A DNA stretch of 64,000 nucleotides from assembly GCA_964016885.1 (NCBI GenBank), contig OZ024742.1, positions 192,324,001 to 192,388,000 on the forward strand. Reading direction: 5' to 3'. Position 1 is the first letter of the stretch. The number at the start of each line of letters is the position of its first letter. The translations under genes were made by a program, and so were the position numbers. This DNA comes from Eledone cirrhosa. Lineage: Eukaryota. This document shows positions 3,319 through 63,512 of the stretch, one piece after another. The notes below the pieces were generated by a model, which saw only the letters and a program-made list of their open reading frames with translations, searched no databases and was not told where the DNA came from.

Positions 3319-3518
3319 TAAAAGGTAAACAAAAAGAACAACACAGTCGGTACAGTATATGGAAGGGATATATTAGGTTAACGCTTGATATGGCAGGAAG
3401 AGGGTTATATATATATATATATATATATATAACCCTCTTCCTACTATATCAAGCGTTAACCTAATATATCCCTTCCATATACTGTACCGATTGTGTTGTT
3501 ATTTCTGTTTACCTTTTA
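3319..3518. repeat. Inverted repeat (~88-bp arms) centred on a (TA)n tract
   Basis: 3319-3406 is the reverse complement of 3431-3518 with a few substitutions; the symmetry continues into flanking (TG)n/(CA)n. Confidence 0.95.
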
Positions 3519-6020: not shown

Positions 6021-6067
<47 letters not shown>

Positions 6068-6260
6068 GGAGAAAGTATGACCCGACGGCAGAGCTCAAAC
6101 CGTTTCGACGGCTATTTCTGGACTAAATAGAAACAGCCGTCGAAACGGCTTGAGCTCTGCCGTCGGGGTCATACTTTCTCCTATTACCCACACTACTACC
6201 CTAAGTATTGAGTACTCTTGTGCGTTATGGTCCATCTGGTTCCTTACCACAACTCCTTCG

Positions 6261-6261
<1 letters not shown>
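6068..6261 (+). mobile_element. (TA)n-embedded palindromic hammerhead-derived element, family P copy 1
   Basis: Inverted arms around gaaacggcttgagctctgccgtc plus ~80-bp tail ending ccttcgt; (TA)n on both sides; homologous to copies at 20849, 32091, 50547 and 62971. Confidence 0.85.
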
Positions 6262-6317
<56 letters not shown>

Positions 6318-7079: not shown

Positions 7080-7141
7080 TATTTCATTATACATATTTCA
7101 GGGATACCACATTAAATGGTATGCCTTCATCAGACAAAATA
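7080..7141 (-). ncRNA. Minimal type-I hammerhead ribozyme (Penelope-like-element type), family H1
   Basis: Minus strand: tattttgt-CTGATGA-aggcatacca(tttaatg)tggtatccct-GAAA-t(atgt)a-TA-atgaaata. Stems I and II pair, cleavage triplet AUA. Downstream tail is shared with the 26890 copy. Confidence 0.85.
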
Positions 7142-20792: not shown

Positions 20793-20848
<56 letters not shown>

Positions 20849-20849
<1 letters not shown>

Positions 20850-21002
20850 CGAAGGAAATGTGGTAAGGAACCAAGTGGACCATAACGCACCAAAGTACTC
20901 AATACTTAGGGTAGTAGAGTGGGTAATAGGAACGACGGCTAATTCTGGTCCAGAATTAGCTGTCGAAACGGCTTGAGCTCAGCCGTCGGGGTCCTACTCG
21001 TT

Positions 21003-21004
<2 letters not shown>
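20849..21004 (-). mobile_element. Family P palindromic hammerhead-derived element, copy 2 (one arm partly deleted)
   Basis: Same tail and gtcgaaacggcttgagctcagccgtcggggtcctactcgttcc motif; (TA)n on both sides. Confidence 0.85.
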
Positions 21005-21058
<54 letters not shown>

Positions 21059-21317: not shown

Positions 21318-22201
21318 CGAGGTGTGTCAGAAAAGTTCCAGGACTGATGTCACAAAAGATTTGTTTCAAACCCAAACTTCCCACTAAGAGTTTTCTCATT
21401 CAAAGTAATCACCCTGGAGTCTAATGCACTTTTTCATCCTTTTCTGCCACGCTTGCATGAACCCCTGGAAGTATTCTTCCGGGATCCTCCGCAGTTCCGT
21501 CGTCACGGCCTTTTTGATGTTGTCCACGTCTTCAAAACGGGTCCCTTCCGGGTCGTACTCGAAGATCCATGACTCACCGGTGATGACTGTCCCTAGCAAG
21601 TCTGGTTCGGTTTCAAGACGTTCGAAGATGTCCTGGCACACTTGCATGCGTCGACCCTTCTGGTCATAGTTCAGCAGTTTTGGCACCAACTTCGCGCAGA
21701 CTTTCCGCATGTCCAAATCTTCAGTGAGAATCTTCCAGACGCTGTCCCGATTCATGCCCAGCTCATTTGCCATCAGTCGAACAGTCAGCCGACGATCGCT
21801 ACGCGCCATCTGCCTGACGCGCTCAACGTTGACCTCAGTCCTGGTTGTTGAGGGCCCTTCCGCTCCTGAGGTCATCTTGCACCACTCAAAAACACGTGAG
21901 CGTGACATCGTCTCATCTCCATACACTTGCTGCAACAATCCCAGTGCTTCTGACGGAGTTTTCCCCAACTGTACCAGAAACTTCAAGTTTGTTCGTTGCT
22001 CTGTGCTCATTGCTTGACGACCTGAAACAGAGGACATGTATATAAAATTATGAAGAAAAAAGTTTGATCGCTGCAGAGAGCTAAGATTACAGTTACATAC
22101 TCCATGGGGATTACTTTGAAGGAGAAAACTCTTAGTGTGAAGTTTGGGTTTGAAATAAATCTTTTGTGACATCAGTCCTGGAACTTTTCTGACACACCTC
22201 G
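21318..22201 (-). mobile_element. Mariner-family DNA transposon, internally deleted (884 bp), ~104-bp TIRs, TA flanks
   Basis: TIRs cgaggtgtgtcagaaaagttccaggactga... / ...tcagtcctggaacttttctgacacacctcg, TA on each side; mariner transposase motifs on the minus strand. Confidence 0.95.
21396..22010 (-). pseudogene. Truncated mariner transposase (HTH retained, most of the DD34D domain deleted)
   Basis: MSTEQRTNLKF..GKTPSE..VYGDETMSRSRVFEW..RKVCAKLVPKLL..VITG(D)ESWIFEYDPE joined directly to GTRFEDV..GDYFE; the catalytic aspartate region is missing. Confidence 0.9.
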
Positions 22202-22499
22202 TATATATATATATACATATAGAATTTATCGATGTGCTATTCGGACGATAGCAACGCAGTTTATGTCACGTATCCTGGAATTCATTGTTTCAGTATAGCC
22301 TATAATGATTTGATTTTGAAAAGGTTGGGAATAGAAGACGAAGGCAACGTGGTAACCACATACAGATGACAACAAACAAACACACACAATATATATATAT
22401 ATTAAAGGACGATCGACTTTCGTCAAATCGGACCGAGGGAACAATGTTTCCGTTGGTCTTTCAAATTGCTAATACTATCTATCGGTCGCAACTCCAGGT

Positions 22500-23364: not shown

Positions 23365-23461
23365 GATATAGAAATGGCTTTTACATGACTAGAACTCTTT
23401 CATTCAGGAGAAATCCTCCAAAATGAAACAGCTCTAGTCCTGAAGAAGTCATTTCTATATC
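23365..23461. repeat. Inverted repeat, 46-bp arms with a 5-nt loop
   Basis: 23365-23410 vs 23416-23461, 8 mismatches by manual alignment; the right arm contains gaaacagctctagtc. Confidence 0.85.
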
Positions 23462-26685: not shown

Positions 26686-26752
26686 ATGAGATTAAAAACC
26701 TATTTTGTATAGCAAACCGTGTCACTCTTCTTTCCTAATTTATATATATATA

Positions 26753-26891
26753 TACAATGTGTGTTTTATAAATTTTGACATAGCCAAGGAACATACCTTA
26801 ACGGTTGAAGTTTTCCTTGGATAACTTCAAACGTTAAGGTATGTTCCTTGGCTATGTCAATATTTATAAAATTTATAAAACACACTTTGTA
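26753..26891. repeat. Fold-back inverted repeat immediately 5' of hammerhead 26890
   Basis: 26753-26812 is the reverse complement of 26823-26891 (one 9-bp indel); starts at a (TA)n tract. Confidence 0.9.
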
Positions 26892-26951
26892 TTTTATCTG
26901 ATGAAAGCGTACCAAAGTTTTTGGTACCCTTGAAATATATATAATAGAATA
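26890..26951 (+). ncRNA. Minimal type-I hammerhead ribozyme, family H1
   Basis: tattttat-CTGATGA-aagcgtaccaaa(gttt)tttggtaccctt-like stem II-GAAA-t(atat)a-TA-atagaata. Palindromic tetraloop, predicted cleavage after 26943, overlapping AATAAA. Confidence 0.88.
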
Positions 26952-27087
26952 AATATGGTTTTATAAATATAGTTTCCATTTATTTAATATCATTGAATAT
27001 TATACTCCAGTAAATATGTCGAGTGCTCTGAATCAGTTATAAACATTTATATTTGTTGAATTACCAACAAATTGAATATCCCTTCTG

Positions 27088-27156
<69 letters not shown>

Positions 27157-27535
27157 TCTTGGAGCAACGGATATGAACTTCCCGATATAAGGTTTTGATT
27201 CTCTTTGTTTATTTTTATATATGAACATTGATTGTTTATTGTATCTCATTCTGTTATTTTGCCCGAGAAAATATCTATGTGTGTCATCAAATGATGTACA
27301 CATATGTGTATTTTTTCAAATTCCAATTGAGTTCTAGCACGTGGCTTGAATTCCTTTTAGAATTCATTGTCCTGCGCATGTCTTGTTTTTTGGCGGTAAT
27401 TCTCCTTCCTCTTTTTTTGAGACAGTATGAGAATTTCTTTAGAACTGCTGGGCTAGCAACCTAACAGCTACCTCAAGCACTGATGGTGATTATCGCTAAA
27501 TATTGATGTTGATTCAATATTAATATTATAGGGCA

Positions 27536-27662
27536 CCCACTGAAGAATTATAAGAGCTCACTTGAATAAGTATCTGTTGATCTTATACAAGCTTCTACAT
27601 AAATTGGTATAATTTCACCTAACTTGTAGGAATCTTATAATGAAACGAGACGTCCGTCTGGG
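27536..27662 (+). ncRNA. Type-I hammerhead motif with extended stem II
   Basis: ccca-CTGAAGA-attataaga...tcttataat-GAAA-cg(agacgtc)cg-TC-tggg. Perfect 9-bp base of stem II, palindrome GACGTC in loop III, GUC triplet. Confidence 0.75.
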
Positions 27663-27832
27663 AAGAGATATATTTGATATATCTCATATGAAATAATACA
27701 GCCAATTTTCCACACAATACAATTAGTTAGCACCCCGAACGTTTAATTAGGAATATACTCACTTATTTCCTAATGTTTGTTGAGTGAGTTGGGATTTGGT
27801 CGGAGTATCGCTATTAGCTTTCTCCGATAATG

Positions 27833-27872
<40 letters not shown>

Positions 27873-27896
27873 TGTATGTATGTATATATATATGTA

Positions 27897-27975
<79 letters not shown>

Positions 27976-28015
27976 GCCATGACTGAATTTAGTCAAGGTA
28001 TGTCATGCATCATCT

Positions 28016-28082
28016 TATTTTATCTGATGAGGACATACTGTTGAAGATAGCTCAGTACCTCTGAAATATGTATAATAAAATA
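28016..28082 (+). ncRNA. Minimal type-I hammerhead ribozyme, H1-related
   Basis: tattttat-CTGATGA-ggacatactg...cagtacctct-GAAA-t(atgt)a-TA-ataaaata. Perfect 8-bp stem I, predicted cleavage after 28074. Confidence 0.82.
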
Positions 28083-28339
28083 TATATGATCACACGAATG
28101 TCTATATTTGCTAATATTTTGAATTAATATATATATATTTATATATATATATATATATAAATATAATACAGAACACCCGCCTTCCCTAAGTACAAAGCGA
28201 AACCTACAGTCAGTAGGCACCTCTAACAAAAATACACCCCCGTCCCACTACCCCCACCCCATCCACACCACCCCTTTCGATGTAAAGTTATGTTGGTACC
28301 ACAACATCCAGTCCGAAATAAATGAGGTCGTGTAGGTGT

Positions 28340-28566
28340 CACGACAAAAAAACACACAGTCCACGCTGTAATGTGGCCGTGTAGGTAACACGGTAAAAAC
28401 CTCCCAGTCCACTCTGTAAACGTGGTTGGTGTTAGGAAGGGCATCCAGCCGTAGAAAACCCGCCAGACAGTCCTATACGAGCAAGACAACCAATCTTGCC
28501 TCAAGTGGGAAAATTCCCGTCCAAACCCATGCAAGCGTGGAAGATGGACGTTAAACGATGATGATG

Positions 28567-28568
<2 letters not shown>
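28340..28568 (+). mobile_element. RTE-type LINE/SINE 3' tail
   Basis: ggttggtgttaggaagggcatccagccgtagaaaacc...gatggacgttaaac followed by (GAT)n; resembles RTE 3' UTRs from memory. Confidence 0.55.
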
Positions 28569-28609
<41 letters not shown>

Positions 28610-28945
28610 CATATGTCTGTGTCAGAGAGAGATGTGTGTGTGTGCGTGTGCTTATATGTCTATATATATACACATATGTATGTGTGTCAGAGAGAGAGAT
28701 GAGAGAAAGAGAGAGAGAAAGATGTGTGTGTGCGTGTGCTTATATGTCTATATATGTATACATATGTGTCTATGTATGTTGTTGAATGTGCACACGCACA
28801 ATACATAGATGTTTGTATAAGGTACATCATAGAGATATAGACACACCCATATGTTATGGAAGGGAAGGTGGGAAGGAGATTAAGCCAAACACTCAACTAC
28901 ATGCTTTAGGAAAAACCTATTTTAAAGTTTTATACTAATAATGTC

Positions 28946-28977
<32 letters not shown>

Positions 28978-28978
28978 A

Positions 28979-29035
<57 letters not shown>

Positions 29036-29232
29036 GATGTATATATATATATACATATATATCAGATAAATATAACTTCTTGTTTTGTTGGGCAGATTAG
29101 TTCTTGATTTAAATAGTTGTGTTGGTGTTTCACAACCACTTTAGTGTTAAAATATAACCAACTAATGTAGCTATAGTATTTTTTTTATATCTTAATTGGC
29201 ATAGCATATATGTATATATATGTATATATACA

Positions 29233-29272
<40 letters not shown>

Positions 29273-29484
29273 GTATATATATGTAAATGTATATGTATAT
29301 ATATATAAGTTGAAATAGAATGAAACGAAATTTCATTTCTCACTCTTAGTACGGCACTTACTTATCGTTTTCGGTGCGCCTGGCCGACTGAACTCACTCG
29401 ATATGCAAATTAGGCTGCTCAGCCGTTAATTTTCATAAGGAAAGTATATACTTTCGAACGGTCAACCATCTGGCAGAAGGGTAT

Positions 29485-29527
29485 ACGGTGCTGATGATAG
29501 CTAAGAAGCTTGAAACTAGTACATCGT
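29485..29527 (+). ncRNA. Minimal type-I hammerhead ribozyme (43 nt)
   Basis: acggtg-CTGATGA-t agct(aaga)agct t-GAAA-(ctag)-TA-catcgt. Palindromic CUAG loop, GUA triplet, one U.U mismatch at the base of stem II. Confidence 0.8.
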
Positions 29528-29756
29528 TCCTGTGTCAGTGTTGAACAAAAAGGTGACGTGGTTGCCTTAACACCGTACGGCATAAATCAGGCTGTCCGTT
29601 TGTTTACAAACGGACAAAGCGGGCGTTATAATAAACGTCCGCTAAACTGATACGTACATATATATATGTGTACCTGTATGTATATATATATATATATATA
29701 TATGCATACTACTGTACGTCTGTATACATATATGTATGTACGTATACATACATACT

Positions 29757-29813
<57 letters not shown>

Positions 29814-29822
29814 GTATATATG

Positions 29823-29869
<47 letters not shown>

Positions 29870-29874
29870 GTGTG

Positions 29875-29943
<69 letters not shown>

Positions 29944-30070
29944 ATGTGTGTGAAAAATTGGTATTAGTAAGGTTATTTTAGTGTGTACATAGTAATAAGG
30001 TAGTGTGCATATGTATGTATATATGGATATGTACTAGTATATACATGCATACATACATATATACACACAC

Positions 30071-30141
<71 letters not shown>

Positions 30142-30150
30142 GATATATAT

Positions 30151-30193
<43 letters not shown>

Positions 30194-30412
30194 ACTGCAA
30201 TAATCTGCATATGGTTATGTCTTCAAGGCTGGACTCGCGTTGTATATACGGGTTAGCAAGTAAGCCGATTAATGTGTTTCTGCGTGTATATGAATGTATG
30301 TATATGTGAGTGTGTGTGTGTTCATTATTTATAACTGTGTCTATATGTGTATGCAGATGAGTCAGGGAGGCACTTATGGTTGGTTGGTGATTCAGATAGT
30401 GAAGGACATACA

Positions 30413-30477
<65 letters not shown>

Positions 30478-30479
30478 GT

Positions 30480-30558
<79 letters not shown>

Positions 30559-30628
30559 CATGTATATATATATATATATATATGCATATATATATATATA
30601 TATTTATAAATATATATATATGTATATA

Positions 30629-30733
<105 letters not shown>

Positions 30734-30814
30734 ATATACATATATATATATGCATATATATATATATTAATATATATATATATGTATATATATATATATG
30801 TATATATATACATG

Positions 30815-30882
<68 letters not shown>

Positions 30883-31235
30883 CATACATACATATATATA
30901 TATATATATGTATGTATGTATATATATATATATACATATGAGTGAGTGTATACTATATAGTATATAGTATATAGTATGGTGTACGTGAAATGTAACAATA
31001 TTTGTTATTAATATCAATATAGATATCAACATGGGTTGGAGAATTATCAAAACAAACGTGTGAAGCTATGTAGTGTAAGAGAGAGAGGGAGAGAGAAGGA
31101 GAATGAGTGAGAAGGCGGGGGGAGAGAAGGCGGAGGAGAGTGGCAGGGTTACATGCCTCCGTATAGTATGAGTGGTGGTTAGAGACAGGAAGACAGATTA
31201 ACATGGAGACGTCTGCACAGATCTGTGTCTTTGTC

Positions 31236-31376
<141 letters not shown>

Positions 31377-32025
31377 CTCTCTCTTTCTCTCACTCTCTCC
31401 CTCTCTCTCTATCTTCCCCTATCTCTCTCTCTTCCCCCATCTCTTTCTCTCTCTCTCCCTCTCTCTCTCTCTCTTCCCCCATCTCTTTCTCTCTCCCTCT
31501 CTCTCTTTCTTCCCCCATCTCTCTCTCACTCTCCCCATCTCTCTCTCTCTCTCACTCTCTCTCTCTCTCACTCTCCCTCTCCCTCTCTCTCTCTGTATGT
31601 GTGTGTGGTAGAATGTATAGTCTTAGAGCATAAAATCAGTGAAAAAATATGAGGTGGAGGAGGAGGGAGAGATTGAATGAAAGATAAGGGGGGGGGGGCG
31701 TGAATGAAACTTGGTGAAAATGGATTATGAAAGATAAGGATTGAAAGAAAGAAGGAGTAAGAATAAGAAAGAAAGAGAGAGAGATAGGGGGAGGGGGAGA
31801 TGGTAGTGAGGGAATATCGGAGACGATGGTGACTAAAGTGAGATATAAGATAGGTTATGGTGTAGGAACGACTGGTGAAGGTGGGAGCATTGCTAGTTGT
31901 TAGTAGTGGAGGTTTGGGTGTTTGGTGAGTGTCGGAATGTTTGGCAGCAGCGAAAAACTGGGTCCATTGTTCCTGGTGAAACACTTTGGATAAATTACAT
32001 ATTTTAGAAGACACCTAGACACACA

Positions 32026-32090
<65 letters not shown>

Positions 32091-32091
<1 letters not shown>

Positions 32092-32232
32092 ACGAAGGAA
32101 ATGTGGTAAGGAACCAGGTGGACCATAACGCACCAAAGTACTCAATACTTAGGGTAGTAGAGTGGGTAATAGGAACGAGTAGGACCCCGACAGCTGAGCT
32201 TAAGCCGTTTCGACGGCTAATTCTGGACTAAA
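32091..32232 (-). mobile_element. Family P copy 3 (ends at the palindrome axis)
   Basis: Tail plus one arm ending ...aattctggactaaa; preceded by (TA)n. Confidence 0.85.
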
Positions 32233-32258
32233 TGATTCTTTGCTTAAACTTTAATCTG

Positions 32259-32313
<55 letters not shown>

Positions 32314-33364
32314 TATATATATATATTTATATATATATAGATGTGTGTGTGTGTGAACATATACTCGATCGGGTTCCGAGTAGTTTCCATTTACCAAACT
32401 TCACACAAATTATTTGTCAGTCCCACGCTTCTACAGAACTAACTTGATCATGCAGTTAGATAGAACTCTAAACTGCGTGGTTCTGAATCGAAATTCTAAA
32501 TCACACAAATATTGCTGTACTATTTTTCTTTCGTATAAAATAGTTTATTTATCTGTGACCTAGTTCTAAGGCTGCCAAAATATTTGCTTGTTGTGTAGAA
32601 AAGTCCGTTCATTATATTGGAACAAAGGAAACATCTTTTTATTCGTCATTCCATTGCTGATACTGTCTGCTGGGTGCAGCTTCTTGCTAAATCGCCAACA
32701 CTTTTCTGGTGATAAAATGCAGAAGGTACAGAGCTCGAACAGATATTGTAGTACATTCTATCCAGCGCTTTGAAATCATTAGGTCCCGGGTTCGATCTAT
32801 TTCCTTTATATCTTGGGTAAATATCATTTACCATAGCCTCAGGTCAGCACATGACATGGGAGGGAAATTGGGTGGATGGAAACTGTTTGGAAGACCACCC
32901 TATACATTCCTTTTGTAATTCCAAGAGCCAGCCTTGTCACTCTCAAAATGATATAATAATATATACAATGGAATGCTAAAAGCTACAATCAATGTATTTT
33001 CACTGTGACAACTCAAATATCTGGACGGTTAGAGAAATATTATCTTCCTGGAAGTAATAAGTAACTGACAATATACTTTTATGCCATAGTTTTTCTCAAT
33101 GCAAAGTGGTGCCCAGTGAAGAAATAACCCACTTTTGTCATAACCCAACCACTTTTAATTGTTTGACAGAGACCCAAGGGGGTCCCTGTTGCCTCGTACG
33201 AGGGATTTAGTCACACAAGGGTATACGACATATTTAAGCATGCCGAAGATATTTGACACTCTGAGTTTTCTATTAGTGTATGAATGTGTGTGTGTGTGTA
33301 TATACATCATATTTACATGCCTTTGCCTTCTTGTTTGCATGTCTAAGCATGTATATATATATAT

Positions 33365-35170: not shown

Positions 35171-35270
35171 GAGAGAGAGAGATTTGTGTCACTGTCTGCT
35201 CTTAGGTTTACTGTTTGTTGCATATATCTAATAACTTAGCTGTTGGACAAAAGGAAATCTATAAAATAAC

Positions 35271-35392
35271 TGTAATCTGAGTTTTTCGAATATTACTAAT
35301 AACATTCGATTCGTTTGCAATTATGTAAAATTGAGGCTTGTTTGCATAATTGCAAACGAATCGAATGTTATTATTAATAAACTCAGATTACA
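35271..35392. repeat. Fold-back inverted repeat; same arm family as 63321-63512
   Basis: tgtaatctgagttt...ttcgtttgcaattatg / cataattgcaaacgaa...aaactcagattaca. Confidence 0.88.
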
Positions 35393-36214
35393 TTTATTGT
35401 ATTCAGCTATGTAGAACGAAATTTTTCTTTTTTATATGAAATAACTACTAAACCTAAAATAATAAGTATGACAAATGAATAAAATAATTTTCATTTGCCA
35501 CACTGTGTAACTTTAACTAGATTGTAGCTGCTCTCATTTTTTTTTCTTTGTATATAATGGTTAAAAATGAATTTGAATTACTGAAGAACATATAAAAAGG
35601 TTCTTTTACGTGACTTTTATTTCAAATTATGAAGAGTTAATTGTTAATTGGTCTATTAGTTTTATTTTTGTTGAAAATTTAAACAGTGTTAAACTAATTG
35701 TAACATAGAAATTAGTCATATGCCAATGCATTTAAAAGTTTTGCAAAATCAGAGGCGTTTTTTTAAAAGTAGTCGAGTCTGTTATTATTACAACGTCTAT
35801 AAAGAGAAAGCGAGCATCATTGGTAATGGAAATGAGATTTTACAGCATCTGACTCCTTGTGAAAAGGGATCAAAGATTTCGACAAACGTACATCACTGGA
35901 AAACTTATTAAATAAAAAACCTCAATAAGCGTTCTATTTTTTATTATTTTTTACGTAATTATATTTAGTAAGGTTTCCATTATTCATTCATCAATCTTTA
36001 TCAATTCTCTTCTGTTTCCATTTATCCTATTGGTATGCTGGTATATTAACACCGACTGTTTCTCACGTTTTCATTAAGACACAAGAAAAAATCTTTCTCA
36101 AAAGCACTAGTGTTGTGTCTCGCCCAAGGATATATATCAGAACGGTGGGGAAGGAGATGGAAGTCAGAATCTCTTTACATTTTGAGTTCAAATTCTGCTG
36201 AAGTTAGCTATGAT

Positions 36215-41151: not shown

Positions 41152-42614
<1,463 letters not shown>

Positions 42615-46388: not shown

Positions 46389-46640
46389 AGGCGCATGGCT
46401 TAGTGGTTAAAGCATTGGGCTTGCAATCGAAAGGTTGTGAGTTCAATTCTCGGACCGGGTGATGTGCTGTTTCTTTCAGCAAGACACTTTATTTCACGTT
46501 GTTCCAGTTTACTCAGCTGCAGAAATTAGTACCGGCCTGCCCGTCCAGCCAGTGGGATGGCGTTATCTTATGGCTAAAACAGCACGACGTGCTGTGACCA
46601 GCGGCGCCGAGTGGCGCCCGACAGACTGGTCGGTCAAGGT
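46389..46640 (+). mobile_element. tRNA-derived SINE family B
   Basis: ggcgcatggcttagtggttaaag...gagttcaattc...agcaagacactttatttcacgttgttccagtttactcagctg. Confidence 0.8.
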
Positions 46641-50501: not shown

Positions 50502-50546
<45 letters not shown>

Positions 50547-50547
<1 letters not shown>

Positions 50548-50742
50548 CGAAGGAAATGTGGTAAGGAACCAGGTGGACCATAACGCACCAAAGTAAATAC
50601 TTAGGGTAGTAGAGTGGGTAATAGGAACGAGTAGGACCCCGACGGCTGAGCTCAAGCCGTTTCGACGGCTAATTCTGGACTAAATTAGTCCAGAATTAGC
50701 CGTCGAAACGGCTTGAGCTCAGCCGTCGGGGTCCTACTCGTT

Positions 50743-50744
<2 letters not shown>
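50547..50744 (-). mobile_element. Family P copy 4, containing a perfect 127-bp palindrome (50621-50747)
   Basis: 63-bp arms around the single A at 50684; (TA)n on both sides. Confidence 0.9.
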
Positions 50745-50833
<89 letters not shown>

Positions 50834-51179: not shown

Positions 51180-51465
51180 GTATTAAGGATACTATTTATG
51201 GTTATGTATATACTAAAACCTTTTATAGTTATATATATTTTAAACCCTAAATAGTGAAAGACAGTAATTTATTATTATCTTATTACTAGTAAGATAAATA
51301 GCTCAATGTAATAACATCAGTTGTTTTACAGAGCAGTTATATAGAAATTACACGAATCAAAGTTCTGTTTAAATCATTTATTTGCTTACAATTGTTTCTT
51401 CCAAACCGAGGTTTGGAAGAGGTGTTGAAAAGGAGGTCATGTATGTAAAAAAAATCACTGAATAA

Positions 51466-51514
51466 TTGCTCCGAAGACTCCAAACCTCGGTTTGGAAGAA
51501 ACAATTGTAAGCAA
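51466..51514 (+). ncRNA. Minimal type-I hammerhead motif, CCGAAGA core, inside inverted repeat 51343-51553
   Basis: ttgct-CCGAAGA-c tccaaacc(tc)ggtttgga a-GAAA-c(aatt)g-TA-agcaa, then ATAAA. 51343-51417 is the reverse complement of 51479-51553. Confidence 0.72.
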
Positions 51515-51844
51515 ATAAATGATTTAAACAGAACTTTGATTCATGTAATTTCTCTATATATATATAGAGAGAGAGAAAGGATAAAAAGGACGATTGATCA
51601 CTCCTCCATTGCATTCATTGATAGGTGACGCGCCCTTCGCCACTGATCAGCTCAAGGCTCGATCTATATCGATCCTACCCGACTCAATAATCCGCAGCTC
51701 GACGGACCCTCCCACAATGCACTTTCTTATCTTTTGCTTTTATAGTTTCTTCTTTTCTCCTGCGTTTGTTGACATTTATTCCCTGGAGAAAAATGGCGCC
51801 AAACTTTTCCCTTTATATATATATATATGTATATATATATATAC

Positions 51845-52421: not shown

Positions 52422-52789
52422 GTATGCGTGTATATGTGTGTAATTATGTGTTGGTATTTTTGTATATATGTTAAAATGTGTACGTATGTTTGCGTTCATG
52501 ATGGAATACATGCAAGCAACATACATACATACATATGTACATACATATGTACATACATATATGCATACATTCACACACTCACACATACGTATACACACCA
52601 AAGACACCAGTCCCCCATCTCCAAATACCTAAAGTTTCGATTAGCGCTGTTTTAGCGGTAATTGTTGTCTTGGTGTGGCACACGTCGGCGGTTCTAATCA
52701 CAATCATAGATGGAGATGGTGGCGAATGTGATGGTGATGGTGATGGTGTTGGTGTTGTTGAAGTATTGATGATGATGTCGATGGAGGTG

Positions 52790-53620
52790 GTGTTGGTTGT
52801 GTTGAAGTACTGATGATGGTGATGGTGGTGGTGGTGGTAGTTGTGTTGAAGTACTGGGGATGGTGGTAGTGGTGGTGGTGTTGAAGTACTGATGATGGTG
52901 GTGGTGGTGGTGGTGTCGTTGGTGGTGGTGAAAGTACTGGCGATGGTGATGGTGGTGGTGGTGTTGAAAGTACTGGTGATGGTGGTGGTGGTGGTGGTGG
53001 TGTTGAAAGTACTGGTGGTGGTGGTGGTGTTGAAAGTACTGGTGGTGGTGGTGGTGTTGAAAGTACTGGTGATGGTGGTGGTGGTGGTGGTGGTGTTGAA
53101 AGTACTGGTGGTGGTGGTGGTGTTGAAAGTACTGGTGGTGGTGGTGGTGTTGAAAGTACTGGTGGTGGTGGTGGTGGTGTTGAAAGTACTGGTGATGGTG
53201 GTGGTGTTGAAAGTACTGGTGGTGGTGGTGGTGGTGTTGAAAGTACTGGTGGTGGTGGTGGTGTTGAAAGTACTGGTGGTGGTGGTGGTGGTGTTGAAAG
53301 TACTGGTGGTGGTGGTGGTGTTGAAAGTACTGGTGGTGGTGGTGGTGTTGAAAGTACTGGTGATGGTGGTGGTGGTGGTGTTGAAAGTACTGGCGATGTT
53401 GGTGGTGGTGGTGGTGTTGAAAGTACTGGTGATGGTGGTGGTGGTGGTGTTGAAAGTACTGGTGATGGTGGTGGTGGTGGTGGTGTTGAAAGTACTGGCG
53501 ATGTTGGTGGTGGTGGTGGTGTTGAAAGTACTGGTGATGGTGGTGGTGGTGGTGGTGTTGAAAGTACTGGTGATGGTGGTGGTGGTGGTGGTGTTGAAAG
53601 TACAGGTGATGGTGGTGGTG
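52790..53620. repeat. Minisatellite (GTG)n-TTGAAAGTACTG, ~24-39-bp units
   Basis: Repeated gtgttgaaagtactg separated by variable (GTG)n. Confidence 0.95.
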
Positions 53621-53829
53621 GTGGTGATGTAGACCGTAGTTATGGTGGTAATGATTATGGTAATGGTGGTTGTGAGGATGATAGTGATGTTAGGGTTGTA
53701 GATTTTGATTGTGATGATTATGACGGTACTGATGGTGATAATAGTGGTGGTGGTGGTGGTCTTGGTGGTAGTAGGGGTGGTGCTGGTGGTGGTTGTGGTT
53801 TAGGTGATAGTGTTGTTAGTTTCAATGGT

Positions 53830-56450
53830 TGTGATTATAGTGGCGGTATTTTTGGTGATGATAGTGGTGGTAGTGATAGTGATGATAGAGTGGTAGTGGT
53901 GATGGTGGTGGTGGTAGTGCTGATGGTGACGATGGGGGTCGTGGTGGGGGATGTTGATGATAATGGTGGTGATGGTGATGTTTGTGGTGTTGGTGGTGGT
54001 GATGGGGATGGTGATGGTTGTAGTGCTGATGGTGACGATGGGGGTCGTGGTGGGGATGTTGATGATAATGGTGGTGATGGTGATGTTTGTGGTGTTGATG
54101 GTGGTGATGGGGATGGTGATGGTTGTAGTGCTGATGGTGACGATGGGGGTCGTGGTGGGGATGTTGACGGTAATGGTGGTGATGGTGATGTTTGTGGTGG
54201 TGGTGGGGATGGTGATGGTTGTAGTGCTGATGGTGACGATGGGGCTAGTGGCGGTGATGTTGATGATAGTGGTGGTAGTGATAGTGATGATAGTGGTAGT
54301 GGTGATGGTGATGGTTGTAGTGCTGATGGTGACGATAGTGGTGGTGATGGTGGTGGTGGTGACGATAGTGGCGGTGGTGGTGACGATAGTGGTGGTGATG
54401 GTGGTGGTGATGGTGGTGGTGGTGACGATAGTGGCGGTGGTGGTGATGATAGTGGTGGTGATGGTGATGATAGTGGTGGTGAAGGTGACGATAGTGGTGG
54501 TAGTGATAGTGATGATAGTGGTAGTGCTGATGGTGACGATAGTGGTGGTGATGGTGATGATAGTGGTGGTGAAGGTGACGATAGTGGTGGTGGTGGTGGT
54601 GACGATAGTGGTGGTGATGGTGACGATAGTGGTGGTGGTGGTGGTGACGATAGTGGTGGTGATGGTGACGATAGTGGTGGTGATGGTGGAGTTATGTGGA
54701 AAGAAATAACAAAAAAGGGGGTCAAATAAATAAATAACTAATATCCTAGATCTATAGGGAGGGATGAAGGGGATTATTGGGACCAAAGTAGGTCATGTAA
54801 GAATGAGGGGGGAGGAGGGCTCACTACTGTATATGATGATCAAAGAGAGAGTAGTGTTTGTGGTGGTAGAGGAGGTCGTGTTGATGGGGGTGGGTGGCAG
54901 TGGTGGTTGTGGTGGAGTTTGTGGAGGTGGTGGTGGTGATGTTGTTGGTAGTGATGGTTGGGGTGGTGGTTGTGGTGGAGTTTGTGGAGGTGGTGGTGGT
55001 GATGTTGTTGATGGTGGTGGTTGTGGTGGAGTTTGTGGAGGTGGTGGTGGTGATGTTGTTGATGGTGGTGGTTGTGGTGGAGTTTGTGGAGGTGGTGGTG
55101 GTGATGTTGTTGATGGTGGTGGTTGTGGTGGAGTTGGTGGTGGTGGTGGTGGTGATGTTGTTGATGGTGGTGGTTGTGGTGGAGTTGGTGGTGGTGGTGA
55201 TGTTGTTGGTGGTGATGGTTGGGGTGGTGGTTGTGGTGGAGTTTGTGGAGGTGGTGGTGGTGATGTTGTTGATGGTGGTGGTTGTGGTGGAGTTGGTGGA
55301 GGTGGTGGTGGTGATGTTGTTGGTGGTGGTGGTTGGGGTGGTGGTTGTGGTGGAGTTTGTGGAAGTGGTGGTGGTGATGTTGTTGGTGGTGGTGGTTGTG
55401 GTGGTAGTTGTGGTGGAGTTTGTGGAGGTGGTGGTGGTGATGTTGTTGGTGGTGGTGGTTGTGGTGGTAGTTGTGGTGGAGTTTGTGGAGGTGGTGGTGG
55501 TGATGTTGTTGGTGGTTGTGGTGGTGGTTGTGGTGGAGTTTGTGGAGGTGGTGGTGGTGGTGAAGCTGGTGACCGTGGTGGTGGTTGGTGTGGTGGTGGT
55601 GATATTGTTGGTGGTAGAAAACGTTGTGTTGGTGGTGGCGGTGGCGGTGGCGGAGGTGGTGGTGGTAGTGATGAAGTTGCTGATGGCGGTGGTGGTGATG
55701 TTCTTGGAGGTGGTGGTGGTGGTGGTATCGGTGGTAGTGATGGAGCTGGTGATGGCGGTGGTGGTTGTGGTGCAGTTTGTAGAGGTGGTGGTGGTGAAGC
55801 TGGTGACCGTGGTGGTGGTTGGGGTGGTGGTGGTGATGTTGTTGGTGGTAGAAAACGTTGTTGTTGGTGGTGTAGTTGGTGATGTTGGTGTTGTCGGTGG
55901 TAGTGATGGAGCTGGTGATGGCGGTGGTGGTTGTGGTGCAGTTTGTGGAGGTGGTGGTGAAGCTGGTGACGGTGGTGGTTGTGGTGAAGCTGGTGACCGT
56001 GGTGGTGGCTGGGGTGGTGGCGAAGCTGGTGACGGTGGTGGTGGTTGGGGTGGCGGTTGTGGTGCAGTTTGTGGAGGTGGTGGTGGCGGTGAAGCTGGTG
56101 ACCGTGGTGGTGGTTGGGTTGGTGGTTGTGGAGGTGGTGTTGATGATGTAAGTGGAGGTGATGGCGCTGTAGATGGTGATGTTGGTGGTATTGGTGGTAG
56201 TGATGGGGCTGATGATGGCAGTGGTGGTTGTGGTGCAGTTTGTGGAGGTGGTGGTGAAGCTGGTGACGGTGGTGGTTGTTGTGAAGTTTGTGGAGGTGAT
56301 GTTGACGGTGGAAGTGGAGGTAGTGATGGCGGTGTTGGTTGTGGTGGAGGTGGTAGTGATCGTGATGTTGTTGGTGGTGGAGACGGTAGTGACGAAGCTG
56401 GCGGTGGTGTTTGTGGAGGTGGCGGTTGTGGTGGAATCAGTGGGGGGGGG
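53830..56450. repeat. GGT-rich low-complexity compound tandem repeats
   Basis: Higher-order units such as ggttgtggtggagtttgtggaggtggtggtggtgatgttgtt; source of the poly-G/V/T/P ORFs. Confidence 0.9.
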
Positions 56451-56769
56451 ATGGAATCAGTGGAGGTGGCGGTTGTGGTAGTGTTGGCTGAAGTAGTGTG
56501 GATGGTGAAGCTTGTGGTGGTGATGGCTGTGGTGGAGGTTATAGTAGTGATGTTGGTGATATTAGTGGCGGCGGTAGTGATTGAGGCGATGATGGCGGTG
56601 GTGGGGTTAGTTGAGGTGGCGGTGATGGTGGAACGTGGGGGCGGTGAGGGGTTGGTGGGTCTTAAGCATTGTTGAGGGAAAATATTGAAAGATGGTGACG
56701 TATAGGTAATAGGAAGGGGGAGGTGCGGTGTATGTATGTGTATATCTGTGTCTGTGTGTGTGTATGTGC

Positions 56770-56921
56770 GTGAACAAGTGATTGTATGTATGTGGGTGAG
56801 AGTGATGTGTTGGTAGTAGGAAGAGGTGCCGTGTGTGTGTGTGTGTGTGTGTATGTGTGTGTGAACAAGTGATTGTATGTATGTGGGTGAGAGTGATGTG
56901 TTGGTAGTAGGAAGAGGTGCC

Positions 56922-56952
<31 letters not shown>

Positions 56953-57289
56953 TGTGAACAAGTGAGTGTATGTATGTGAGTGAGAGTGATGTGTTGGTAG
57001 TCGGAAGATGTGCCGTGTGTGTGTGTGTGTGTGTGTGAACAAGTGAGTGTATGTATGTGAGTGAGAGTGATGTGTTGGTAGTAGGAAGAGGTGCCGTGTG
57101 TGTGTGTATGTGTGTGTGTGTCTGTGTGTGTGTATGTGTGTGTGAACAAGTGAGTGTATGTATGTGAGTGAGAGTGATGTGTTGGTAGTAGGAAGATGTG
57201 CCGTGTGTGTGTGTGTGTGTGTATGTGTGTGTGAACAAGTGAGTGTATGTATGTGAGTGAGAGTGATGTGTTGGTAGTAGGAAGAGGTG

Positions 57290-57340
<51 letters not shown>

Positions 57341-58072
57341 TGTGAACAAGTGATTGTATGTATGTGAGTGAGAGTGATGTGTTGGTAGTAGGAAGAGGTG
57401 CCGTGTGTGTGTGTGTTTGTGTGTGTGAACAAGTGATTGTATGTATGTGAGTGAGAGTGATGTGTTGGTAGTAGGAAGATGTGCCGTGTGTGTGTGTGTG
57501 TATGTGTGTGTGAACAAGTGAGTGTATGTATGTGGGTGAGAGTGATGTGTTGGTAGTAGGAAGAGGTGCCGTGTGTGTGTGTGTGTGTGTGTGTGTGAAC
57601 AAGTGATTGTATGTATGTGAGTGAGAGTGATGTGTTGGTAGTAGGAAGAGGTGCCGTGTGTATGTGTGTGTGTGTGTGTGTGTGTATGTGTGTGTGAACA
57701 AGTGAGTGTATGTATGTGGGTGAGAGTGATGTGTTGGTAGTAGGAAGATGTGCCGTGTGTGTGTGTGTGTGTGAACAAGTGATTGTATGTATGTGGGTGA
57801 GAGTGATGTGTTGGTAGTAGGAAGAGGTGCCGTGTGTGTGTGTGTGTGTATGTGTGTGTGAACAAGTGAGTGTATGTATGTGGGTGAGAGTGATGTGTTG
57901 GTAGTAGGAAGATGTGCCGTGTGTGTGTATGTGTGTGAACAAGTGAGTGTATGTATGTGGGTGAGAGTGATGTGTTGGTAGTAGGAAGAGGTGCCGCGTG
58001 TGTGTGTATGTGTGTGAACAAGTGAGTGTATGTATGTGGGTGAGAGTGATGTGTTGGTAGTATGAAGAGGTG

Positions 58073-58113
<41 letters not shown>

Positions 58114-58175
58114 TGTGAACAAGTGATTGTATGTATGTGAGTGAGAGTGATGTGTTGGTAGTAGGAAGATGTGCC

Positions 58176-58208
<33 letters not shown>

Positions 58209-58520
58209 TGTGAACAAGTGAGTGTATGTATGTGGGTGAGAGTGGTGTGTTGGTAGTAGGAAGATGTGCCGTGTGTGTGTGTATGTGTGTGTGAACAAGT
58301 GAGTGTATGTATGTGGGTGAGAGTGATGTGTTGGTAGTAGGAAGATGTGCCGTGTGTGTGTGTGTGAACATGTGAGTGTATGTATGTGGGTGAGAGTGAT
58401 GTGTTGGTAGTAGGAAGTGGTGCCGTATATGTGTGTGGGATTCAGTTATTGTGTGAGTATGTGATAATATGTGATTATGTGAATGTGTGTGTGTGTGTGT
58501 GTGTGTGAACAAGTGATTGT
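56770..58520. repeat. Minisatellite: ~19 copies of a constant ~59-bp block separated by variable (GT)n
   Basis: gaacaagtga(g/t)tgtatgtatgtg(g/a)gtgagagtgatgtgttggtagtaggaaga(g/t)gtgcc followed by (GT)n. Confidence 0.95.
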
Positions 58521-58699
58521 GAGTGCGTGTACATGATTTTTTTCAGTATATGTATGTGATTGTATATATGTGGAGGATTATGAGTGGGAGTCAAGGGCAG
58601 AGAGAAGGGGCTATAGGTGTGTGTGTAAGGGGGGGGGGTCATGTGGAGGATCACATTCATAATAATGATGTCGATGATGATGATGATAGTAGTAGTAGT

Positions 58700-59940
58700 G
58701 GTATTAGTAGTGATAGTGGTGGTGGTGTCGTGACGGTGTGGGGCTGGCGTGGTGCTGGTGGTGGCGGTGTCGTGAGGGTGTGGAGGTAGTAGTTGTGGTG
58801 TGGTGGGGGTAGTTGTGGTGGTGTCGTGACGGTGTGGGACTGGCGTGGTGCTGGTGGTGGCGGTGTCGTGGTGGTGTCGTGAGGGTATGGAGGTAGTTGT
58901 GGTGTGGTGGGGGTAGTTGTGGTGGTGTGGTGGTGGTGTGGTTGTGGTGTCGTGGGAGTAGTTGTGGTGGTGTGGTGGTGGTGGTGTGGTTGTGGTGTCG
59001 TGAGGGTGTGGAGGTAGTTGTGGTGTGGTGGGGGTAGTTGTGGTGGTGTGGTGGTGGTGGTGTGGTTGTGGTGTCGTGGGAGTAGTTGTGGTGGTGTGGT
59101 GGTGGTGGTGGTGTGGTTGTGGTGTCGTGAGGGTGTGGAGGTAGTTGCTGTGGTGTGGTGGGGGTAGTTGTGGTGGTGTGGTGGTGTGGTTGTGGTGTCG
59201 TGGGAGTAGTTGTGGTGGTGTGGTGGTGGTGGTGGTGGTGGTGTGGTTGTGGTGCCGTGAGGGTGTGGCGGTAGTTGTGGTGGTGGTGTGGTGTATGTGT
59301 AGGGGTGGCGGTGTGGTGGGTGTGGGGGTAGTTGTGGCCACGATATTGATCATGGAGTTCTTGTTAGTGGTGGTTTGTTACTGTAATGGCGGTGACGTGA
59401 TAGTGATTTTTTTCTGATAATAATTGTAGTTAAGGCGGTGTTGTGGGTGGGAGGTGAGCTCTTAGTAGTGGTGGTAGTGATGATGATGATGGTGGTGGTA
59501 GTGGTGATGGTGGTATTGGTTTGGGTGGTGGTAGTGGAGGTGGTGGTCATAGTGATGGGGTGGTTTTGGTGGTGGTAGTGGTGGTGGTGGCCGTAGTGAT
59601 GGGGGTGGTTTTGGTGGTGGTAATGGTGGTGGTGGTCGTAGTGATGGGGGTGGTGGTCGTAGTGATGGGGGTGGTAGTGGTGGTGGGGGTGGTAGTGGTG
59701 GTGGTCGTCGTAGTGGTGGTGGTCGTAGTGATGGGGGTGGTCGTCGTAGTGATGGGGGTGGTAGTGGTGGTGGTGGTGGTCGTAGTGATGGGGATGGTAG
59801 TGGTGGTGGTGGTGGTCGTAGTGATGGGGGTGGTGGTCGTAGTGATGGGGGTGGTAGTGGTGGTGGTGGTGGTCGTAGTGATGGGGGTGGTAGTGGTGCT
59901 GGTGGTCGTCGTAGTGATGGGGGTGGTAGTGGTGGTGTAT
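58700..59940. repeat. GT-rich low-complexity tandem repeats
   Basis: Units such as ggtcgtagtgatgggggtggtagtggt. Confidence 0.88.
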
Positions 59941-59974
59941 CACCCTCAATAAATGTAATATCTCCACTATCCAG

Positions 59975-60066
59975 GAAGCCCCAACCGTTAGGGTTGTCTT
60001 TTTTTCCGCGTATGTCAATATTTATTTATAAAACAAATTTGTATTTTATCTGATGAAAGCGCACCA
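59975..60066 (+). mobile_element. Family H1 fragment truncated within hammerhead stem II
   Basis: tatgtcaatattta...ttataaaacaaatttgtattttatCTGATGAaagcgcacca then (TA)n; matches 26853-26915. Confidence 0.7.
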
Positions 60067-61831: not shown

Positions 61832-62970
<1,139 letters not shown>

Positions 62971-62972
<2 letters not shown>

Positions 62973-63176
62973 AACGAGTAGGACCACGACGGCTGAGCTC
63001 AAGCCGTCGAAACGGCTTGAGCTCAGCCGTCGGGGTCCTACTCGTTCCTATTACCCACTCTACTACCCTAAGTATTGTCGGGGTCCTACTCGTTCCTATT
63101 ACCCACTCTACTACCCTAAGTATTGAGTACTTTGGTGCGTTATGGTCCACCTGGTTCCTTACCACATTTCCTTCGT
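62971..63176 (+). mobile_element. Family P copy 5, with a shortened palindrome centre and a 48-bp tandem duplication
   Basis: Same motifs; 63029-63076 is repeated at 63077-63124; (TA)n on both sides. Confidence 0.88.
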
Positions 63177-63320
63177 TATATATATATATATATGAATGTA
63201 TGTATAGTATATTTGGCAATATACCGTATGTGTAATTAAACAAATTTTGAAGACCTGGCGCTATCATTTTTAAAGCAGTGTCTATGTTAAATAGTTCATT
63301 GCTTTACATAGCTATATACA

Positions 63321-63512
63321 ATAAATGTAACCTGAGTTTTTCGAATATTAATAATAATATTTGATTCGTTTGCAATTATCTAAACAGCCTTTCTGAGCCA
63401 TGTCAGTAGTATGACCCCAACCATTCTTGTTCTTGTGTTGGCATATAAATTGTATAATTGCAAACGAATTGAATAATATTATTAATATTCGAAAAACTCA
63501 GATTACATTTAT
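63321..63512. repeat. Fold-back inverted repeat; same arm family as 35271-35392
   Basis: 63321-63379 vs 63454-63512 with a 74-bp spacer. Confidence 0.88.

Follow-up and report, generated by a model that had tools for sequence, protein, structure and literature searches.

The insertion at 50545-50747 of the window, the 64-kb stretch of Eledone cirrhosa DNA analysed here, carries twice what is probably the 3' half of a hammerhead ribozyme, in two arms facing each other between (TA)n tracts. How such an inverted pair is made is the question that this locus raises. The initial annotation assigned it to a family of five copies (family P) and proposed that the nascent cDNA folds back on the self-complementary stem II of the ribozyme, primes itself and overwrites the catalytic core, and that this is how the inverted ends of Penelope-like elements (PLEs) originate.

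Family P copies in the window

BLAST of the copy at 50545-50747 (c4) on the 64-kb window detected five copies at E<1e-5 and none further. The insertions of this family are just 160-210 nt long. Positions of ends, arm limits and joints are given in the coordinates of copy c3.

6065-6263, plus strand: copy c1, short arm 6065-6128 and long arm 6129-6263, a subfamily variant
20847-21007, minus strand: copy c2, long arm with a 35-nt deletion, the block being retained in the short arm
32090-32233, minus strand: copy c3, one long arm, with end A at 32090 and end B at 32169
32188/32189: predicted ribozyme cut of copy c3
50545-50747, sense on the minus strand: copy c4, whole insertion, tailed long arm and inverted short arm
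62968-63178, plus strand: copy c5, turning at an intrinsic 6-bp hairpin around GAAA

The five copies do lie next to (TA)n, as annotated. An alternating-AT run of 16-53 nt adjoins all ten outer ends, which is the (TA)n or AT-rich target type of PLEs, whereas 6% of random positions lie beside a run of at least 10 nt. The layout of the two-armed copies is (TA)n, a long arm from end A, a short arm of opposite orientation from end B, and again (TA)n. In c4 this layout is composed of the following parts.

50506-50544: left (TA)n target
50545-50685, minus strand: long arm, putative cDNA primed at end A
50545-50620, minus strand: tail, from end A (50545) to the end B position, 76 nt
50598-50611, minus strand: tail hairpin with AC-rich loop
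50621-50747: perfect palindrome, 63+1+63, axis at 50684
50635-50670, minus strand: hammerhead 3' half of the long arm, predicted fold
50685-50747, plus strand: short arm, putative cDNA primed at end B
50698-50733, plus strand: hammerhead 3' half of the short arm, fold predicted from the sequence
50705-50708: GAAA of the short arm
50725-50727: GUC triplet
50728-50733: 3' strand of helix I
50748-50777: right (TA)n target

The c4 palindrome is thus exactly as described before, and together with that of c5 it accounts for two of the only three perfect palindromes in the window (arms of at least 14 nt, arm GC above 20%). The second, reverse-complementary arm is present in four copies; c3 has a single arm, and its remaining 31 nt are another repeat.

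Public reads and contigs

Out of eight public runs, four (X1, X2, X5 and X6; three samples from three studies) were compared with 32090-32264. X1 and X2 are a single sample, which may be the window's own, and X5 carries another organism label. This 175-nt stretch was matched by 16,147 of the 16.3 million contigs of X1 and by 24,436 reads of X6, which makes family P very abundant, and by 40 contigs of X5. End B is family-wide, since (TA)n stands directly before 32169 in 3045 reads of X6, and also in 27 contigs of X1 and 28 of X2.

Eleven opposite-strand joints were listed in reads and contigs, ten of them within family P. The ten have an asymmetry of 37-98 nt and 0-3 nt fitting both sides; one arm ends inside the tail in seven, and one side is located at 32226-32233 in eight. 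The joint table is without the end of each arm and probably misses symmetric turns. The eleventh joint (32234/32234) was left out as it likely connects two copies of a second family (family Q, see below), its short side having the length of the family Q piece. Two other signals were discarded: at 32222 and 32233 in X6, ends and loose ends pile up on AATT sites and are likely RAD restriction ends and ligation chimeras, and the slopes of read depth at both edges of the stretch are an edge effect. Taken over window and reads, an inverted 5'-truncated neighbour copy, as known from PLEs, is found in four of the five copies and in the ten family joints.

Copy c3 is followed by a piece of different origin.

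32234-32264, plus strand: family Q piece, 31 nt, joined by its truncated end to that of c3, outer end at (TA)n

From 32234, 2525 reads of X6 continue upstream into different sequence (agreement 0.86), and only 11 reads span this position versus 1714 and 3214 on either side. As the reads diverge here, c3 is a truncated family P end joined head-to-head to a truncated family Q end. The 31 nt were also considered as the parent of family P, which is ruled out by the reads showing a separate high-copy repeat. The join of c3 to family Q was met only once, and a deletion between two adjacent insertions could have produced it. Upstream, the family Q reads show a short hairpin and then GAAA, with a first core half deviating from CUGANGA, a candidate ribozyme; the 32234/32234 joint suggests that Q also forms perfect head-to-head palindromes.

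The hammerhead motif

Family P contains the components of a type I hammerhead 3' half in the right order, which are a helix II strand, GAAA, helix III with a palindromic loop, GUC and a helix I strand. The part of the annotation that places such a 3' half at the end of a likely Penelope-like element is supported. Of 27 changes present at 2% or more in X1 none affects GAAA or the UC of the cleavage site, and 2 of 37 sites are polymorphic in the block from helix II to helix I versus 18 of 93 in tail and spacer (p=0.06), so that conservation of the ribozyme block is suggestive only.

The other half of the core, CTGANGA, is absent from all five copies on both strands. Beyond 32233, the loose ends of contigs agree in register in X1, X2 and X5, and their final 8 letters, about 39 nt upstream, complement the helix II strand and would be its missing 5' partner. 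The complement was matched to the strand of the 32220 variant; by chance it is expected with a probability of about 3e-4 over all 8 letters and about 1e-2 over a core of 5. The loose-end consensus, drawn from 39, 27 and 2 contigs of X1, X2 and X5 with an agreement of 0.59-0.8, comprises 30 letters; it ends about 3 nt before the expected start of CUGANGA, a motif not seen within it. X5 lists no inverted joint at 32233, and therefore at least one of its two contigs continues unlike the inverted arm. The parental form with more upstream sequence that had been predicted is in line with these extensions, which suggest a linear parent whose helix II closes a loop of 33-39 nt.

Such a loop II is far beyond the 3-10 nt of the minimal hammerhead descriptor. 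A minimal-hammerhead scan of the window gave no site; it was too strict, missing even the good motif at 29491, and was disregarded. Rfam reported no hammerhead on c3 at E values up to 10 (searched in 26700-32400), and in the lowest-energy fold of truncated c4 the strand of helix II is paired to that of helix III. With up to 3 mismatches allowed, the upstream motif was not matched anywhere in the window, and exact family patterns have no match in metagenome contigs and in viral contigs. The hammerhead in family P is probably real.

Fixed ends, tail and arm limits

The outer ends A and B are separated by 79 nt, and the predicted ribozyme cut is 20 nt from B and 99 nt from A. The short arms begin at the same base, B, in all four two-armed copies. 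At the truncated side the arms reach the following positions.

c1: long arm 32224, short arm 32233 (9 nt further 5')
c2: long arm 32226, short arm 32228
c4: long arm 32233, short arm 32231
c5: long arm 32218, short arm 32208

The long arm of c2 has lost 32179-32213 at a 3-nt microhomology, and with it the block from GAAA to helix I. The long arm of c5 contains a direct duplication of about 46 nt, the only candidate among the copies for the partial tandems that form the pLTRs of PLEs. In two of the four copies the short arm has letters which the long arm lacks, 9 nt in c1 and 35 nt in c2. The arms are separated by spacers of 9, 1, 1 and 4 nt.

The four axes all differ. Three are within the predicted loop II, and the view that inversion axes are non-random is supported; c5 turns at GAAA, at a 6-bp hairpin of -6.7 kcal/mol as DNA. 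A few self-complementary letters are found at the c4 apex. As it was drawn, the axis argument was circular, because the "stem II" and "loop II" of the annotation are the palindrome itself. At 32191, the foot of helix III, one piece of c5 and one read joint (X1, X6) both stop; these stops and the deletion in c2, which skips helix III, could possibly reflect pausing of the reverse transcriptase (RT) at the ribozyme.

The family P tail is one-sided and has a fixed boundary. Its 79 nt compare with 30-40 nt in described PLEs, and the c4 tail is shorter than that of the family by a 3-nt deletion. The tail hairpin starts 6 nt past B; its variants in X1 fall in none of 16 stem positions versus 4 of 8 in loop and bulge (p=0.007), and one pair is broken in c1. 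A coding role for the tail was set aside, since the c1 changes are mostly non-synonymous in the sole open frame (judged by eye).

Other features of the window

The window is animal-like, rich in microsatellites and contains a mariner remnant. A second hammerhead family is present at 7133 (minus strand), 26898 (plus), 28024 (plus) and 60050 (plus, truncated), with an intact CTGATGA core, a long helix II, GAAA, a 4-nt AT-rich loop III and a weak helix I (2 of 5 pairs). Two of its copies terminate in (TA)n some 60-65 nt past the predicted cut, and the copy at 26898 has a head-to-head inverted arm at 26754-26880. A complete minimal type I hammerhead with 5 of 5 pairs in helix I and a palindromic loop III is located at 29477-29539 (plus; weak Rfam HH9 match, E=1.1).

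Further inverted repeats include the near-perfect one at 3319-3518, which has a (TA)13 centre and a geometry opposite to family P, a MITE-like AT-rich inverted-repeat element present twice with different spacers (35261-35402 and 63321-63512), and those at 51343-51553, 42384-42603 and 23365-23461, whose arms measure 40-85 nt and whose spacers are unrelated. At 21396-22265 (minus) there is a decayed mariner-type transposase frame, matching the Mos1 HTH at E=2e-4, below the curated cut-off. At gathering level, Rfam recognised in the window only a weak tRNA match, a tRNA-like stretch at 46396-46453 (plus), probably the head of a SINE. Simple repeats, GGT-rich and GT-rich and strongly skewed in GC, fill the region 52500-60050 (about 7.5 kb).

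Element class

PLEs are characterised by inverted 5'-truncated copies, tails of 30-40 bp and (TA)n targets (PMC8557442). Membership of family P is judged from this layout because no PLE protein was found; RT and GIY-YIG domains gave no match in 125 of 127 window frames scanned, and all five copies are short truncations. Shared with described PLEs are the head-to-head inverted 5' copy, the optional one-sided tail, junction palindromes, (TA)n targets and a probable hammerhead near the 3' end. Differences are, besides the length of the tail and the small size of the insertions, that no reading frame or pLTR pair was seen and that one copy has a partner from another family. We consider a PLE origin of family P likely.

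Other classes fit less well. Ends A and B are not complementary and the axes vary, so there are neither terminal inverted repeats nor a constant internal structure, and the exclusion of a MITE holds. Tandem units that each hold a complete type I hammerhead, which a non-LTR retrozyme would have, do not occur among the five copies. Non-LTR retrozymes themselves derive from PLE ends (10.64898/2026.07.22.740005), and PLE hammerheads are described, including opposite-strand pairs which in Schistosoma are 100-700 bp apart (PMC4209133). With the type I hammerheads of both groups family P has in common GAAA, the palindromic loop III, an NUH triplet and the 3' strand of helix I (PMC4209133; 10.64898/2026.07.22.740005), and its stable helix III of 4-5 bp is as in fungal and protist PLEs (same sources). 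It differs from them in a loop II of probably 33-39 nt and in the lack of tandem full units.

The structure is one already known, and family P is a real and abundant repeat with the known end layout of PLEs. Its motifs were not found in one supplement file of PMC8557442 or in the searched part of the supplements of PMC4209133; other repeat libraries may already contain it. For cephalopods, recently active PLE families are reported from Octopus (PMC13282606).

Proposed joining of two separately primed cDNAs

Family P shows two fixed outer ends at (TA)n targets, arms arranged head-to-head, sequence that reads through the cut site, and arm ends that cluster in the predicted loop II. The reading we favour, with somewhat better than even confidence, is that the copies are back-to-back 3' ends of a hammerhead-bearing PLE, derived from two separately primed cDNAs joined head-to-head. 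The endonuclease of the element would cut both strands of a (TA)n tract. One strand would prime RT at RNA site A, the end of the tail, and the other at RNA site B, which lies 79 nt further upstream and matches the target over 3 nt. Both cDNAs would pass the uncleaved 3' half of the ribozyme and in most cases come to a halt in loop II, short of the CUGANGA half and 12-25 nt beyond GAAA. Their 3' ends would then be linked, either by end-joining or through annealing of short self-complementary stretches. From two cDNAs of one family a palindrome with a one-sided tail would result, and from cDNAs of two different families an insertion like c3. On this reading, 5' truncation accounts for the missing core.

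Each enzymatic step of such a scheme is supported by the in vitro work on PAc, the protein of a Poseidon PLE of Anolis carolinensis (PMC11167929). PAc, a predicted dimer, nicks and extends both strands on a template of uncleaved RNA, and its two start sites bound the tail, with an AC-rich stem-loop near them (PMC11167929). Family P resembles it in two putative RT starts bounding the tail, the AC-rich stem-loop, the AT-rich target and the read-through of the ribozyme, and the 99 nt from end A to the cut compare with 85-92 nt from the first start of PAc (PMC11167929). The main text of PMC11167929 does not tie two-strand priming to inverted copies. A related process is the twin priming of L1 (Ostertag and Kazazian 2001, as cited in 10.1101/2024.12.14.628481), where both ends of one break prime cDNA, followed by inverted joining; the citing preprint also reports extension of the two ends along different mRNAs. 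Two-ended priming at one break and the inverted join would be what the two have in common.

The strongest competitor, in our view unlikely, is a single cDNA primed at A which snaps back at a small hairpin at its 3' end and copies itself up to B, the apex being eroded by later deletions. c4 and c5 fit this equally well and count against two cDNAs: c5 turns at its intrinsic hairpin, the c4 apex has its self-complementary letters, and the tail hairpin just past B could stop the polymerase. Self-priming was proposed for PLE junction palindromes in 2013 (PMC3846280), and self-annealing of small hairpins gives inverted duplications at L1 breaks (10.1101/2024.12.14.628481). Snapping back requires later deletions in two of the four copies, and a subsequent loss of bases, from the apex or from one of the arms, could indeed have turned palindromes into c1 and c2. 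It cannot make c3, however, the ten read joints are far from symmetric with little microhomology, and the tail boundary coincides with an RT start site in PAc, the sole PLE tested in vitro (PMC11167929).

The mirrored substitutions of c1 had been taken as private changes showing that its arms were copied from each other. They are indeed common to both arms, at six sites, and as such agree with a cDNA that copied itself. They are mostly not private: five of the six are polymorphisms present at 4-30% in X1, and hence mark a subfamily. Since the common haplotype includes an allele found at only 4% in X1, the two arms share a template lineage. Copying of the short arm from the long arm is hard to reconcile with the extra letters that it holds in c1 and c2. 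Mirrored changes are expected under both models if one master supplied both arms.

That family P comes from the 3' end of a different retroelement, one that targets (TA)n and twin-primes, and resembles a hammerhead by accident, appears improbable. The missing core, the lack of an Rfam hammerhead match and of a PLE protein, and the fold of truncated c4 would agree with this. The ordered and nearly invariant GAAA, helix III, GUC and helix I strand and the upstream helix II partner in the contigs argue against it, as does the geometry of the arms. In L1-type twin priming the arms do not overlap but represent separate parts of one RNA, and the position of the second start varies; the family P arms overlap fully, the second start is fixed and both arms copy the same part.

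Slightly less probable still is a palindromic master unit, MITE-like or non-autonomous, which is copied whole and whose copies then lose different bases at the unstable apex. A narrow stop zone, with eight of ten joints having one side at 32226-32233, and the mirrored changes in c1 would be expected of it. Its termini should then be mutual inverted repeats, which they are not, the tail being one-sided; four different axes, contigs that go on upstream into non-palindromic sequence and the foreign partner of c3 speak against it as well.

The originally proposed mechanism is very improbable and already largely refuted within the window: for it speak the probable parental helix II, three axes inside the predicted loop II and the missing core, but folding on stem II would keep the whole 33-39-nt loop as a spacer, which none of the four copies does, no joint with about 25 letters between at helix II is among those listed, c5 turns at GAAA, and the hammerhead family at 26754-26995 is head-to-head with an intact core and its axis about 80 nt upstream of it, so that an inversion can arise without helix II and without the core being lost. 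The core was not overwritten, its loss being ordinary 5' truncation, and self-priming on the ribozyme as the origin of PLE inverted ends fails on its own predictions, namely the spacers, the extra letters of the short arms and the foreign partner of c3.

Implications for Penelope-like elements

The origin of the inverted ends and tails of PLEs has been called undefined (PMC8557442), and self-priming is the sole model for the inverted ends met in the literature searched (PMC3846280). Their formation from two cDNAs was not found in that literature, which covered few subscription papers, nor in the main text of PMC11167929. Extended from family P to PLEs in general, two-cDNA joining would mean that a dimer uses both strands of a single break to prime two cDNAs at two fixed RNA sites, that the tail is the offset between these sites, that a long-looped hammerhead sets the stall and that different families can be joined in one insertion; we put this forward tentatively, holding it somewhat less probable than its contrary. 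Family P is suited to the mapping of junctions, being abundant, short enough to be spanned by reads and provided with two fixed ends and subfamily markers, and a junction map of one assembly would separate fold-back from the joining of two cDNAs. Its value is thus that of a test set for the formation of PLE inverted ends, and not that of a new kind of element.
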